Shown here: piece by piece, positions 24,281 to 37,098 of the stretch
Layout of the letters: each line of letters starts with the position of its first letter
Numbering within the stretch: the first letter of the stretch is position 1
NCBI RefSeq assembly: GCF_041248615.1
Contig: NZ_CP158426.1
Direction: 5' to 3' (one strand)
Length of the DNA stretch: 64,000 nucleotides
Source of the DNA: Escherichia coli
GTDB taxonomy: Bacteria > Pseudomonadota > Gammaproteobacteria > Enterobacterales > Enterobacteriaceae
The notes under the pieces: model-generated
Database searches by the model: none
Told to the model about the DNA's origin: nothing
Seen by the model: only the letters and a program-made list of their open reading frames with translations
Made by a program: the position numbers and the translations under genes

Positions 24281-26293
24281 TTACAACACCTCGCGAACCG
24301 AGATCCCCAGACGCTGCATTCGTGACAGCAGCGTGGTGCGCTTCATCCCTAATCGTGTCGCCGCGCCACGGGGCCCGGCAACAATGCCATTGGTTTCTCG
24401 CAATACCTGAACAATGCGCTGACGTTCTTCTTCGTCATTCTCTGGCGTCGTCGGGTGCAGCAACTGTGCCATTGAACTGCGAAGCGCTGAATCTTCATTT
24501 AGCGTCGGCAGTAAACGGCTTTGTCGGACATTAAGATGTAAATTCAGACTGTTACCGCGAGTCAGTAGTACCGCCCGCTCAATCACGTTTTCCAGCTCGC
24601 GCACGTTGCCCGGCCAGTCCCACGACATCAACTGGCGTAGCGCCTCGGTCGGGATGGCGTCAATTGCGCGATTCATATGGCGCGCCATTTTTTGCGTGAA
24701 ATGTTTTGCTAAAAGAGGGATATCTTCCGGACGGTCGCGTAGCGGGGGCAATTCCAGTGGGAAGACATTCAGGCGATAAAAGAGATCGCTGCGAAACTGG
24801 CGATCTTCAACCATTTGCCACAAATCACGGTTGGTGGCGGCAATGACTCTGACATTTACCGGGATCGTTCTACTCCCGCCGAGACGCTCAATCTCCCGTT
24901 CCTGCAATACGCGCAGCAGTTTAGGCTGAAGTTCTAACGGCAGATCGCCAATTTCATCGAGAAACAACGTGCCGCCATCGGCAATTTCAAAACGACCACG
25001 ATGGGTATTAATCGCACCAGTAAATGCCCCTTTGTCATGACCGAATAACTCACTTTCCAGAAGACTGGCGGGGATGGCAGCGCAGTTGATTTTGACCAGT
25101 GGCTTGTCGCGTCGTGGGCTAAGTTGATGGATCGCTCTGGCGATCACCTCTTTGCCGGTTCCGGTTTCACCACAAATCAACACCGTACTGTCGCTCTTCG
25201 CCACAATATCTACCTGCTGGAGCAAATCTTCCATTGCCTGGCTTTGATAGATAATGTCACCGACGCCCAGATTCGAAAGGAGCTGCTCGCTAAGCTGGTG
25301 GTTTTCTTGCTGCAAGCTTTCCTGCAAATCGGTCATGCTGCGCCAGGCATCGGCATTGCCAACGGCAATAGCGATGCGATCGGCAATATGTTGTAGTAGC
25401 TGGCAGTTTTCCTCACTAAAGAGAGTGGAAGAGGTATGCGCCAGCAACAATGCGCCCGGTGTATGGTTGCCAAAGGTGAGCGGTATAAGGAGCGCAGATT
25501 CGCAGCCGTTAGATGCAAGTAAGTGTAATAACGGGTCGCGTTGCCAGAGAAACAGATCGTCTGCACGGTGCGTCAAGGTCGGTTGTCGGGTTTGTAGCGT
25601 TTGTGTCAGCAATACACTTTCGCCAGGCATACAGCGTGGCAGACACGCACAATGTGAGGCAGAAAGATCGCTGCACCACAGGCTGAACTTCTCGTTCTTT
25701 CGATGATCGCCCAGTACCATACTGACTGAAGCCAGACCGAAAAAATGATGGATCTCACGAGCGACGTCAGCGATCAGATCGTCGAGATCAAGATGTGACA
25801 ACACTGCATTAGTGATATCCACCAGTACCCGATGATGATCGCGATCTTTCTCCAGCAAACGCAGCGCCACCTGCTGTTCTTCATCATTGAGCCATGATTG
25901 CAGAACCGGAGTGATTATGTGTGCCAGCCAGTTAAACAGTGTGCAATCCTGGGGAGTAAAACGACTGCCGTGGGTGCGAATAAAGCGTAGCTCCGCCATT
26001 CCACTACTGCCGAGAAGGACGGCGTGGCGCGAATAATCGACCATCTCACCCTGATACTCTGTTGTTGCCGTCACATCGCTGCCATCATCATGGTAGCGGT
26101 AATAGAAGTTGCTTTTGAGAACATGCAGTTCAATAAGTTGTACCGGGCTGAACGGCGGCGGCAGCGGGATGAAGGCGCGTAATAAAGACGCCTTGCCGTG
26201 TTTCTGCGCTAACCGCTCCGCGAGCATTCCGTTTACCGCTTCAATTGTTATTCCTTGCGGCGGGGCAAACATCGCCTCGTCTGACATAGCCAT
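24281..26293 (-). CDS. hyfR: Sigma54-dependent transcriptional activator HyfR
   Basis: 670 aa; GAF-like N-terminus, AAA+ sigma54-interaction domain ([14 protein letters not shown]), C-terminal HTH. Confidence 0.93.
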
Positions 26294-26322
26294 CAACAGT
26301 CCTTATTAATGAGAAATCCTTC

Positions 26323-26736
26323 TCACGCAATTTTTCTGGCCATCAGATAGATGGCCGGTTCCTGCACAATTTCATCCAACAGATGAATGAATTGAATGCT
26401 ACGCGCCTGCCACACAGACGTCGCGTCATCCGCCAGTGGCGCGAATGCCCGGGTCAACAGGGCGGTGTGGCTGGTGTCAATAACAATCTCACCAAAAGTC
26501 ATCACCCCCAGCATCTTACGTCGGGCTTGCTCCTCTTCGACCAGTGCAAGCCAATCTTCGTATTCCGTCAGTGGGCAGCGGAAGGCGACATTCAGACAAT
26601 CAATCACGCCAACGTGATGGCCGATAGCCAACGAGTAATACATTACCTGGGAGCTGTGTTCCGGCATCTCGTCGCTACTGGCGATAAATTTTTTTCGCAG
26701 CGTCCAGAAAACAATTTCCCTGCACTCCTCAGCCAT
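26323..26736 (-). CDS. hyfJ: Hydrogenase-4 component HyfJ
   Basis: 137 aa; synteny within hyf operon. Confidence 0.9.
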
Positions 26737-27487
26737 GTAACCCCCGGAGAACGCGAAAGAGTTGCTGAACGATACTATTGAGACGCGGATCGTCGGCTTC
26801 GCGCAACCAGGTGTTAACCCGATTTCCTGTGGGATCGTCGCTTAAATGGCGCAGGAGTCGATCGCAAATTTCTCGCCCTTGACGATAGCCCGCCAGCCGC
26901 CTCGCTTCTCGCTCAATGGCGATACGCTGTGATGGCGGGATCTGCGGCCACAGCGGTTGCATGGTCACCCCGGTGGGATCGCGATAATCCACCGCGTGAA
27001 TCTTCTGTTGCAGCAAACCGAGCGCCACGGCGAAACCGTGAATGGTGGCGGCCGGTGTTGGCGGGCAGCCGGGGATCCAAACATCAATGGGGACAATGGT
27101 GTCGCTGCCGCCCCAGACGCTGTAGAGATCGTGGAAAATACCGCCGCCGACACCGCACGCGCCGTAGGAAACACAGATTTTATGATCGGGGGCAGACTCA
27201 TACGCCCGAAGTGCAGGCATACGCATCGCCCGGGTGACTGCGCCAGTAAATAACAAAATATCGGCGTGACGCGGTGATGAAACAACCTTAATGCCAAAAC
27301 GTTCTGCGTCGAATACTGGTGTGATGGCGGCAAAAATTTCGATTTCACAGGCGTTGCAGCCGCCGCAATCGACGCGATAAACGTAGGCTGAGCGACGGAT
27401 ATCCTGTAGCAAATGCCGCTTCATCTTTTGCGTTTGCTCGTCCAGCGTGATGGGCTGGCTGACATGTTGTGTAAGCACTGGACTCAT
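26729..27487 (-). CDS. hyfI: Hydrogenase-4 small subunit HyfI
   Basis: 252 aa NuoB-like with Cys motifs; overlaps hyfJ start by 8 nt. Confidence 0.92.
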
Positions 27488-36423: not shown

Positions 36424-37040
36424 TAGCGTTGCTCCTGAGTGAGGGAAAGGGGATCCTCCCCGCCATTGGCAAACCAGCTTGCGGCAAGGCGCTGTTTTTC
36501 TTTCATCTGACGTTGCAGGCTATCGTCGGTGATCAGCCGTAACGCCTGATTCGGGCAAGCGCGAACGCAGGCCGGACCTTCTGGCAAGAAATCACACAGG
36601 TCGCATTTCACCGCGACGGTCTGGACACCCGGTTCCCAGCGCAGCAAAGCATGTTGGGTCGGCGCGTTTTCTTCGCCGTCTTTGAGTGAGCCCTCAGCCT
36701 GAAAAACATATTGCGCAGGGGCATTCACCGGACGGCTTCCTGAAGCGCTGATTGCGCCAAATGGGCAGACCACGGCACAAAGCTTGCAGCCAATACAGAG
36801 GCTTTCGTTGAGTTGGATCGCATCATCCCTCTGGGAGATGGCATTGACCGGGCAGACCTGCAGGCAAGGGGCTTCCTCACAGTGATGACACACGACAGGG
36901 GCAGTGAGTGTTGACGTCTTCGCCAGGGCCAGGCGCGGGTGTTGCTGTAAACCTTGCGTTTTATGCACGTCCGAACAGGCAGCGAGACAGGTATTACATC
37001 CTGTACACCACAGTGGTTCGGCCACCACAAAGCGGTTCAT
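36423..37040 (-). CDS. hyfA: Hydrogenase-4 4Fe-4S subunit HyfA
   Basis: 205 aa from MNRFVVAEPLWCTGCNTC; AGGAG SD; multiple ferredoxin Cys clusters. Confidence 0.92.
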   Translation of the reverse strand: MNRFVVAEPLWCTGCNTCLAACSDVHKTQGLQQHPRLALAKTSTLTAPVVCHHCEEAPCLQVCPVNAISQRDDAIQLNESLCIGCKLCAVVCPFGAISASGSRPVNAPAQYVFQAEGSLKDGEENAPTQHALLRWEPGVQTVAVKCDLCDFLPEGPACVRACPNQALRLITDDSLQRQMKEKQRLAASWFANGGEDPLSLTQEQR

Positions 37041-37081
37041 GTCGGCTCCTTGAAAATGATATGAAACATTGCATTTCATAT

Positions 37082-37098
37082 TGCATAAAGGATGCCAG
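37082..37098 (-). promoter_or_regulatory. Sigma54 (-24/-12) promoter of the hyf operon
   Basis: Minus-strand CTGGCATCCTTTATGCA = TGGCAT-N6-TGCA with GG-N10-GC spacing, about 45 bp upstream of hyfA start. Confidence 0.65.

Follow-up and report, generated by a model that had tools for sequence, protein, structure and literature searches.

The hydrogenase-4 (hyf) operon of Escherichia coli K-12 MG1655 (b2481-b2492; Andrews et al. 1997, Skibinski et al. 2002) is reported to be barely transcribed and to be enzymatically silent even under strong promoters: Hyd-4 had no activity when driven by T5 or hyc promoters, and 15 engineered K-12-derived strains carrying strong promoters and tail swaps were all negative (PMC7654741). 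The inactivity of E. coli formate hydrogenlyase-2 (FHL-2) has been termed a long-standing mystery by the field (10.1101/563510). FHL-2 is active in Trabulsiella guamensis and Pectobacterium atrosepticum, which have the same hyfABCDEFGHIJ core (50-85% identical to the one described here), a sigma-54 motif before hyfA and a full-length hyfG that includes a 16-residue segment discussed below; they differ from the present locus in carrying a protease gene, hyfK, within the operon and in having hyfR either in divergent position or not at all, and focB is missing from T. guamensis. The hyc operon, encoding formate hydrogenlyase-1 (hydrogenase-3; 7Z0S, 7Z0T), specifies HycE, a close homologue of HyfG with the C-terminal assembly peptide in common, and HycB, D, F, G and H, the counterparts of HyfA, C, H, I and J. 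Both operons have sigma-54 promoters of the formate regulon, but hyf has three antiporter-like subunits (HyfB, D and F) plus HyfE where hyc has HycC alone, it lacks the hycA-type regulator and the hycI protease, and it carries its own enhancer-binding protein and formate channel. The Hyf subunits are also homologous to those of respiratory complex I (NuoB, CD, H, I, L, M and N), although HyfG, unlike complex I, keeps four Ni-binding cysteines and would reduce protons, and hyf has no NADH-dehydrogenase module.

We analysed a window of 64,000 nucleotides of E. coli DNA (contig NZ_CP158426.1), in which positions 23411-37097 of the minus strand are the E. coli hydrogenase-4 cluster hyfABCDEFGHIJ-hyfR-focB. 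With its flanking sites (23378-37238, minus strand), the region is very probably a complete hydrogenase-4/FHL-2 locus organised as proposed below. Its genes and associated features are as follows.

36423-37040, minus strand: hyfA, 205 aa, 4Fe-4S ferredoxin-type electron-transfer subunit (RefSeq annotation, NCBIfam)
34405-36423, minus strand: hyfB, 672 aa, antiporter-like membrane subunit (NF005086, 977 bits against a cut-off of 667)
33447-34394, minus strand: hyfC, 315 aa, NuoH-like membrane subunit (RefSeq annotation, NCBIfam)
31991-33430, minus strand: hyfD, 479 aa, antiporter-like membrane subunit (NF005097, 807 bits against a cut-off of 430)
31329-31979, minus strand: hyfE, 216 aa, FHL-2-specific membrane subunit (NF008556 equivalog, 365 bits against 136, spanning residues 1-216)
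29744-31324, minus strand: hyfF, 526 aa, antiporter-like membrane subunit (NF005041, 1176 bits against a cut-off of 951)
28039-29754, minus strand: hyfG, 571 aa, [NiFe] large subunit (NuoC-NuoD-like), GTG start
28552-28599, minus strand: 48-bp hyfG segment, codons 386-401, present here and deleted in K-12
27484-28029, minus strand: hyfH, 181 aa, NuoI-like 2x[4Fe-4S] subunit (NF006076, 361 bits against a cut-off of 270)
26729-27487, minus strand: hyfI, 252 aa, NuoB-like small subunit (Pfam Oxidored_q6)
26323-26736, minus strand: hyfJ, 137 aa, HycH-like maturation protein (PF07450; NF011664)
24281-26293, minus strand: hyfR, 670 aa, sigma-54 enhancer-binding protein (Pfam domains)
23411-24259, minus strand: focB, 282 aa, formate/nitrite-transporter-family channel (PF01226, 1.8e-64, residues 20-273)
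23378-23407, minus strand: hairpin with a 13-bp stem directly 3' of the focB stop, the top-ranked terminator-like site in our scan

The gene identities are established by several comparisons. Two complete E. coli chromosomes, annotated hyfA through focB, match the region at 100% identity over 13.3 kb, and each of the twelve genes is named in the RefSeq annotation of an identical chromosome. NCBIfam equivalog cut-offs were exceeded by HyfB, HyfD, HyfE, HyfF and HyfH, and that of a HycH-family subfamily model by HyfJ, whereas HyfC matched NuoH models with scores below their cut-offs; Pfam recovered the expected domains in the hyf-locus proteins. All were full length relative to orthologues of Citrobacter, T. 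guamensis and Pectobacterium. The order hyfA-B-C-D-E-F-G-H-I-J on a single strand is that of Hyf-type (FHL-2) group 4a [NiFe]-hydrogenase operons, and most of 80 loci retrieved for other species share it. The three antiporter-like subunits and the NuoH-like HyfC are those of an FHL-2 operon, and HyfE, the marker that separates FHL-2 from FHL-1 (10.1101/563510), is present. The first-pass annotation had described twelve intact genes at 24281-37098, and each is indeed a clean open reading frame without an internal stop, but that range ends at hyfR and holds only eleven of them, leaving focB, which it named, outside on the minus strand. It gave no strand; the hyf genes lie on the minus strand. 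The same twelve genes, their order, the junctions and the neighbours (bcp upstream and yfgO downstream) are found in K-12, whose proteins are 96-100% identical, and the hyf operon, its sigma-54 promoter, HyfR and the hyfG GTG start are already in the databases and literature.

Pfam found GAF (169-311), Sigma54_activat (347-513, 4.7e-75) and AAA_lid_14 (519-585) domains in HyfR, and the sequence contains a GAFTGA loop; HyfR is therefore a sigma-54 enhancer-binding protein, as had been claimed from the sequence. HTH_8 gave no Pfam match in HyfR at E <= 1e-5, and homology suggests that the C-terminal region binds DNA. HyfG contains both Ni-binding motifs, RxCGxCxxxH at 241-251 and DPCxxCxxR (DPCYSCTDR) at 531-539, with cysteines C243, C246, C533 and C536 invariant in 29 sequences, and it matched HycE of the solved FHL complex (7z0s_E) with E = 2.4e-292. 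A 32-residue tail follows R539, as in the C-terminal peptide of the [NiFe] large subunit described in PMC7654741. This hyf locus contains no HycI/HyfK-type protease gene and would therefore rely on hycI elsewhere in the genome. FocB has a full-length Form_Nir_trans domain, and the hairpin that follows it, although its T-tract is weak, is probably a terminator common to focB and the convergent yfgO.

Upstream of hyfA we identified the following sites.

37046-37051, minus strand: hyfA Shine-Dalgarno sequence AAGGAG (37051-37046)
37082-37097, minus strand: sigma-54 promoter TGGCATCCTTTATGCA (TGGCAT-CCTTTA-TGCA), by motif match
37116-37128, minus strand: IHF-like site TAACTTATTGAAT, between the upstream sites and the promoter, one mismatch to YAANNNNTTGATW
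37154-37177, minus strand: conserved 24-nt block GAACGTTAATGACCATCATTTTTG, second candidate activator site
37193-37206, minus strand: palindrome CGACAC-GG-GTGTCG, candidate FhlA/HyfR upstream activating site
37223-37238, minus strand: CRP-like site cGTGAtcaagaTCACA, differing at one base from TGTGA-N6-TCACA and lying 198 nt 5' of the hyfA ATG

The promoter has its -24 GG at 37096-95 and its -12 GC at 37084-83 (GG-N10-GC), in keeping with the consensus TGGCAC-N5-TTGCW and with one mismatch to the pattern searched, TGGCA-N6-TTGCW. Taken alone, the motif does not stand out from chance (the window holds 20 sites with one mismatch, 13.9 being expected), and its significance comes from its position, conservation and published binding data. 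It is oriented toward hyfA and lies 57 nt from the ATG, with a predicted transcription start near 37071; an in-frame ATG at 37079 is 5' of that start. Among 66 hyf loci of other species, 62 have a sigma-54-type motif ahead of hyfA; the distance is 54-104 nt in 61 species and 255 nt in the remaining one. The K-12 hyf promoter was reportedly mapped by primer extension and its rpoN dependence shown by Skibinski et al. in 2002, and native K-12 expression is said, in the same work, to be driven by FhlA and not by chromosomal HyfR. The 16-base core here is the same as that of the K-12 site bound by sigma-54, which appears in ChIP-seq as site OS23, at a distance of 31 from hyfA and marked ‘C’ in the table (PMC4591121), and as the top or a near-top peak in gSELEX (PMC8743547); the base just before TGG is A in K-12 and C here. 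By analogy with K-12, sigma-54 would thus bind the hyfA promoter of the present strain, and the promoter called in the first-pass annotation is real.

Farther upstream, the most conserved part of the bcp-hyfA spacer across three genera is the block GAACGTTAATGACCATCATTTTTG. The palindrome falls in a block, CGACA-N4-TGYCG, that is kept in E. coli, Citrobacter and Klebsiella indica, and its TGTCG/CGACA words recur in the K-12 hycA-hypA intergenic region; FhlA or HyfR may bind there, but nowhere in the hyfA upstream region does the sequence agree fully with TGWC-N6-GWCA, the FhlA consensus in the literature. The IHF-like site is perfect at the same offset (-85 to -88) in five of eight other species and has one mismatch in the other three, suggesting a role for IHF, and the position aligned to the putative CRP site is a perfect consensus in two Citrobacter species.

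Four junctions overlap, by 1 nt at hyfA/hyfB (TAATG, within CTAATG), 11 nt at hyfF/hyfG, 4 nt at hyfH/hyfI (ATGA) and 8 nt at hyfI/hyfJ, as previously noted from the sequence. The remaining hyfA-hyfJ junctions are five gaps, 4-16 nt long, and at each of them a Shine-Dalgarno sequence falls within the upstream gene or just past its end. Such overlapping or abutting stop and start codons with Shine-Dalgarno sequences are those of a translationally coupled polycistron, and coupling in the hyf operon seems likely. The gaps that follow are 29 nt (hyfJ-hyfR) and 21 nt (hyfR-focB).

Three alternatives bear on how these genes are expressed. One is that most hyf transcription comes from bcp read-through or from a sigma-70 promoter at another place in the bcp-hyfA spacer. 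In its favour, bcp runs in the same direction and stops 253 nt upstream, and a scan past bcp gave only a weak terminator-like hairpin, which is the candidate activator palindrome itself. We nevertheless consider this very improbable, because the scan found no sigma-70-like hexamer pair in the spacer, the K-12 site is bound by the sigma-54 holoenzyme, and the sigma-54 motif is kept in other species despite differing upstream neighbours. Division into two transcription units, with the sigma-54 promoter serving hyfABCDEFGHIJ and a weak promoter of its own serving hyfR-focB, is quite possible, if somewhat short of an even chance. The hyfJ-hyfR gap is the largest and contains a small hairpin, GAGAAGGATTTCTC, and hyfR lies elsewhere or on the opposite strand in other genera. 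A hyfJ-hyfR RT-PCR product was reportedly absent in the 2002 work of Skibinski et al., so that hyfR-focB may be a separate transcript. Against this, the gap has no terminator-like site, in which a G+C-rich stem would lead into a T-run; the minus strand ahead of hyfR showed no promoter of sigma-70 type; and Citrobacter, Kosakonia and Phytobacter retain both the gene order and the spacing.

The remaining alternative concerns the start of hyfG, which the first-pass annotation had placed at GTG 29754 while calling it ambiguous with ATG 29700. A third in-frame candidate, ATG 29799, was absent from that annotation. Although ATG is the commoner start codon and the longest open reading frame begins at ATG 29799, a start at either ATG is extremely improbable. 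ATG 29700 (codon 19) is a single-base variant found in this allele only among 18 E. coli sequences, the codon being ACG (Thr in place of Met) in K-12 and 16 others (17/17), and the HycE alignment begins upstream of it, at residue 7, so that residues 7-18 align to HycE in the solved structure and belong to a peptide conserved across genera. ATG 29799 was rejected: it falls within hyfF, no Shine-Dalgarno sequence precedes it, and most species have no equivalent of it. GTG 29754 is preceded 7 nt upstream by a GGAGA Shine-Dalgarno sequence, and a GTG with a preceding GGAG recurs across genera. The comparative evidence thus favours GTG 29754, leaving little of the ambiguity, and we take hyfG to start there.

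We propose that sigma-54 RNA polymerase binds the -24/-12 promoter at 37097-37082 and would start transcription about 31 nt before hyfA only upon remodelling by an enhancer-binding protein, either or both of FhlA and the HyfR encoded in the locus, at sites some 60-150 bp upstream; a putative IHF site would lie between the activator sites and the promoter, and a possible CRP site further upstream. One mRNA would carry the ten structural genes hyfA-hyfJ, and their overlapping or closely abutting stop and start codons would favour coupled, stoichiometric translation, with hyfG read from its GTG. The products would form a complex-I-like membrane enzyme in which HyfG is the [NiFe] large subunit, HyfI the small subunit and HyfH and HyfA the Fe-S cluster carriers, with NuoH-like HyfC, antiporter-like HyfB, HyfD and HyfF, and FHL-2-specific HyfE in the membrane and HycH-like HyfJ as a maturation factor. 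Partnered by formate dehydrogenase H, this enzyme would break formate down to CO2 and H2, with FocB as a formate channel. On this reading hydrogenase-4 would be enzymatically active in this strain.

What may matter is not the operon itself but its comparison with K-12. HyfG has 571 aa here and 555 aa in K-12, the sole exception among hyf proteins whose lengths are otherwise equal. The 48-bp segment opens with one copy of a 10-bp direct repeat, GCCCGTGATT (28599-28590), and a second copy lies just downstream (28551-28542); K-12 hyfG evidently lost the 16 residues through a deletion between these repeats. The segment was found in 79 of 79 other species, in which its motif SPVGP-x-x-R-x-SG is invariant; archaeal MBH and mitochondrial complex I have this motif as well, and HyfG 386-406 aligns without gaps to the complex I 49-kDa/ND7 motif SGP-x-LRGSG-x-x-DLR. 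About half of hyf-positive E. coli genomes have the deletion, and many carry further hyf lesions. We found no mention of it in the literature searched, a scope that excluded the first hyf description of 1997 and reviews. All negative E. coli hydrogenase-4 activity results in the surveyed literature came from K-12 derivatives, which carry the deletion. We raise, as a tentative and rather doubtful suggestion, that the deletion is at least part of the cause of hydrogenase-4 silence in K-12 and that strains like this one, in which HyfG has its ancestral length of 571 aa and all twelve genes are free of lesions, encode a working FHL-2. With an undamaged allele in hand, the question of E. coli FHL-2 inactivity becomes a one-step allele-replacement experiment.

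It is also possible, although we lean against it, that the locus is intact on paper yet cryptic, a dispensable, poorly expressed paralogue of hyc in decay that yields no active hydrogenase-4. Our survey shows hyf decaying in parts of the species: it is lost in the B2/F/G lineages, hyfG is absent from 1132 of 5426 complete genomes, hyfI is frameshifted in 686 genomes, and 9 of 16 sampled genomes have at least one annotated pseudogene among hyfF-hyfR. Since so many natural E. coli carry lesions or have lost hyf, it would be dispensable in many settings, and both the inactivity of K-12 Hyd-4 under T5 or hyc promoters and the position of the protease gene outside the operon fit a cryptic locus. 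On the other side, all twelve open reading frames are intact, the promoter and upstream blocks are conserved, the negative activity results come from K-12 with its deletion, and the allele here is free of the hyfG deletion, the hyfI frameshift and a hyfH 6-bp deletion known elsewhere. Synonymous divergence from K-12 hyf is about 6%, and dN/dS is 0.09 across the operon (about 0.04 for hyfG, hyfI and hyfR), indicating that selection has been purifying.

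The hyf locus consists of twelve consecutive, co-oriented open reading frames on the minus strand between 23411 and 37079, and translation of the annotated coordinates gave no internal stop in any of the twelve frames. Megablast of 24000-37300 against 5426 complete Escherichia coli genomes found a match in all but one, with at least 80% of the query covered in 4291 and two chromosomes 100% identical across its entire length. On one of these identical chromosomes, RefSeq names the genes hyfA, hyfB, hyfC, hyfD, hyfE, hyfF, hyfG, hyfH, hyfI, hyfJ, hyfR and focB and places them between bcp and yfgO; K-12 MG1655 has the same arrangement of genes and flanks. 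The products, in gene order, are as follows.

Products of the hyf locus (minus strand), with length and Pfam domains
HyfA, 205 aa
HyfB, 672 aa
HyfC, 315 aa
HyfD, 479 aa
HyfE, 216 aa
HyfF, 526 aa
HyfG, 571 aa; Complex1_30kDa, Complex1_49kDa, NiFeSe_Hases
HyfH, 181 aa
HyfI, 252 aa; Oxidored_q6
HyfJ, 137 aa; HycH
HyfR, 670 aa; GAF, Sigma54_activat, AAA_lid
FocB, 282 aa; Form_Nir_trans

HyfB, HyfD, HyfE, HyfF and HyfH passed curated NCBIfam equivalog cut-offs, HyfJ scored above the cut-off of the NCBIfam HycH-family subfamily model, and HyfG matched HycE of the solved formate hydrogenlyase complex (7z0s_E) with an E value of 2.4e-292. Measured against orthologues from Citrobacter, Trabulsiella guamensis and Pectobacterium, each of the twelve proteins has its full length, so that, with no internal stops, the claim of the first-pass annotation that every hyf gene is intact was borne out. 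That annotation is accurate and its interpretation supported, and what it describes is a textbook operon, already known; its range of 24281-37098, however, ends at the hyfR stop, leaving out focB (23411-24259), and it did not give the strand. An Rfam scan of 22000-39000 matched no RNA family.

The start/stop overlaps that it listed were all recovered: one base in common between hyfA and hyfB (TAATG), 11 nt between hyfF and hyfG, 4 nt between hyfH and hyfI (ATGA) and 8 nt between hyfI and hyfJ. The other junctions from hyfA to hyfJ are gaps of 4 to 16 nt, where a Shine-Dalgarno sequence lies at the 3' end of each upstream gene. The hyfJ-hyfR and hyfR-focB gaps are 29 and 21 nt. The hairpin directly 3' of focB likely marks the end of the hyf unit and is probably a bidirectional terminator, with a weak T-tract on the focB side. 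It is listed here with the features upstream of hyfA, where alignment of the bcp-hyfA spacer with those of Citrobacter and Klebsiella indica revealed four conserved blocks.

Features flanking the hyf genes
37238-37223, CRP-like site, with a perfect consensus in Citrobacter
37206-37193, palindrome CGACACGGGTGTCG (CGACAC-GG-GTGTCG), conserved block
37177-37154, 24-nt conserved block GAACGTTAATGACCATCATTTTTG
37128-37116, IHF-like site, conserved block
37097-37082, minus strand, sigma-54 promoter TGGCATCCTTTATGCA, GG-N10-GC
23407-23378, strong hairpin with a 13-bp stem, between the convergent focB and yfgO

By count alone, the window shows no enrichment of the sigma-54 motif (20 one-mismatch matches observed versus 13.9 expected), and the case for a sigma-54 promoter upstream of hyfA, as first proposed from the GG-N10-GC match at 37097-37082, is therefore one of context: position, binding in K-12 and conservation all support it. 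The distance from the motif to the hyfA ATG is 57 nt, which predicts a transcription start near 37071, ~31 nt upstream of hyfA. In K-12, the sigma-54 ChIP-seq site OS23 has the identical 16-base core; the published table gives its distance from hyfA as 31 nt and marks it “C” (PMC4591121), and the hyfA site gave the strongest or near-strongest gSELEX peak of the sigma-54 holoenzyme (PMC8743547). From 80 hyf loci fetched from other species, 66 provided a usable hyfA upstream region, and TGGCAY-N5-NTGCW was present in 62 of these, at 54-104 nt in 61 and at 255 nt in one. A scan of the bcp-hyfA spacer found no sigma-70-like hexamer pair. By mapping, Skibinski et al. (2002) reportedly placed the start 30 bp 5' of hyfA, and they reportedly demonstrated its rpoN dependence, so the promoter check that had been proposed has already been done.

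The conserved blocks suggest a layout of the usual sigma-54 type, with putative activator sites, a putative bending site and the promoter. The palindrome at 37206-37193 has TGTCG/CGACA words in common with the K-12 hycA-hypA intergenic region. We withheld the label of FhlA box from every upstream site, because the published consensus, TGWC-N6-GWCA (PMC7658346), is matched in the hyfA upstream region only with one mismatch and nowhere exactly.

The first-pass annotation had proposed GTG 29754 as the hyfG start and had called it ambiguous with respect to ATG 29700. Comparison settled the matter for GTG 29754, which is the predicted start on the strength of its Shine-Dalgarno sequence, the HycE alignment, and comparisons among alleles and across genera. 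The sequence GGAGA lies 7 nt upstream of it, and the alignment with HycE begins at HyfG residue 7, well upstream of codon 19 (29698-29700), where ATG 29700 falls. This codon is ATG (Met) in the window allele only and ACG (Thr) in K-12 and 16 other E. coli sequences; the apparent alternative start thus stems from a private C-to-T change. Other genera almost always offer a single correctly placed candidate, a GTG with GGAG before it, and the peptide upstream of codon 19 is conserved as RG-x-x-x-LA-x-x-x-x-x-FP. The third in-frame candidate, ATG 29799, was rejected as lacking a Shine-Dalgarno sequence and lying inside hyfF.

The sole lead to carry forward from this locus is the contrast between its intact, ancestral hyfG allele and the deleted allele of K-12. 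The K-12 gene (locus L002, 9488-11155) has the same GTG start but encodes 555 rather than 571 aa, and the two proteins differ in length by a single 16-residue, in-frame gap at codons 386-401. At the DNA level, the K-12 deletion is 48 bp (window 28552-28599); a perfect 10-bp direct repeat, GCCCGTGATT, has its first copy at the start of the deleted segment and its second immediately downstream of the segment. All 79 complete HyfG/HycE sequences of other species keep the segment, with S390, V392, G393, P394, R397, S399 and G400 invariant, and its alignment is gap-free with HycE, Pyrococcus MbhL and the complex I 49-kDa/ND7 subunit (SGP-x-LRGSG-x-x-DLR). This conservation identifies the long form in the window, as judged from sequence comparison, as ancestral and the K-12 form as derived, through the deletion of an element that is deeply conserved. 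A HyfG model built with AlphaFold2 from a 29-sequence alignment was too poor to place the segment (mean pLDDT of 64, with residues 384-400 below 50).

A 160-nt probe centred on the deletion site detected hyfG in 4294 of the 5426 complete genomes. The site was fully covered in 2179 of them, and the remainder, up to 2115 genomes, gave mostly two-piece matches at 75% coverage, as expected of the deleted form; about half of the hyf-positive genomes thus carry the deletion. The 1132 genomes without hyfG are consistent with the published loss of hyf in B2/F/G lineages. We aligned 6.1 kb around the site from eight full-length and eight deleted genomes with K-12 and the window. The full-length allele of genome ET881 has the haplotype of the deleted alleles and lies only 2 SNPs from K-12 over the 6.1 kb, a closeness that raised the possibility of recurrent deletion at the direct repeat. 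We set recurrence aside because every deleted allele sampled has the same local haplotype across 29017-28073, which is explained more parsimoniously by one deletion event on this background that then spread by both descent and recombination.

Hydrogenase-4 activity was not found by Finney et al. (2020) in 15 K-12 strains built with the promoter of hyc or T5 and with HyfG::HycE tail fusions, and the HyfG/HycE alignment published there is limited to the last 93 residues (PMC7654741). Lindenstrauss and Pinske call E. coli formate hydrogenlyase-2 a “long-standing mystery” whose “deficiencies” are unknown (10.1101/563510). The deletion could cripple K-12 HyfG, and alleles like that of the window could be functional. 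We found no mention of the deletion in those hyf papers that could be searched, and we claim no priority for it.

Other lesions affect hyf in the sampled genomes, at least one pseudogene among hyfF-hyfR being present in 9 of the 16. Deletion of a single T at 27140 shifts the frame of the small-subunit gene, hyfI, in six of the eight deleted genomes (L092-L095, L097 and L098), and an allele-specific 49-mer found it in 686 of the 5426 complete genomes; ET881 (L089) has a separate hyfI frameshift at 27317. A 6-bp hyfH deletion between short GCCTGCG repeats (27894-27899; L090 and L091) is found with full-length as well as with deleted hyfG, and shortens the first ferredoxin motif from 12 to 10 residues, breaking the CxxCxxCxxxCP spacing. 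Nonsense mutations are annotated in hyfF in two genomes and in hyfR in two others (among L087, L088, L093 and L098); in WP8-S18-CRE-02 (L087), the hyfR nonsense mutation is accompanied by frameshifts in hyfF and hyfH, possibly assembly errors. The window allele has none of these hyfI, hyfH, hyfF and hyfR lesions. Between the window and K-12, dN/dS is 0.09 for the operon and ~0.04 for hyfG, hyfI and hyfR, which argues for purifying selection on the locus for most of the history of the species.

In two of the sampled genomes (L092 and L094), GCGCTG is tandemly duplicated in hyfF at 30155; these 6 bp add two residues and give a 1587-nt gene. Among the other-species loci, a record labelled Chryseobacterium sp. 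18061 (L023) has a hyf operon of Enterobacteriaceae type, its hyfG 85% identical to that of the window, and a 3.9-kb contig labelled as a Desulfovibrio desulfuricans MAG (L071) has hyfGHIJ only, with hyfG 74% identical; both, being assigned to unrelated taxa, likely reflect contamination or mis-binning. In Candidatus Symbiopectobacterium (L070), an interruption after 115 residues makes hyfG a probable pseudogene in this symbiont.
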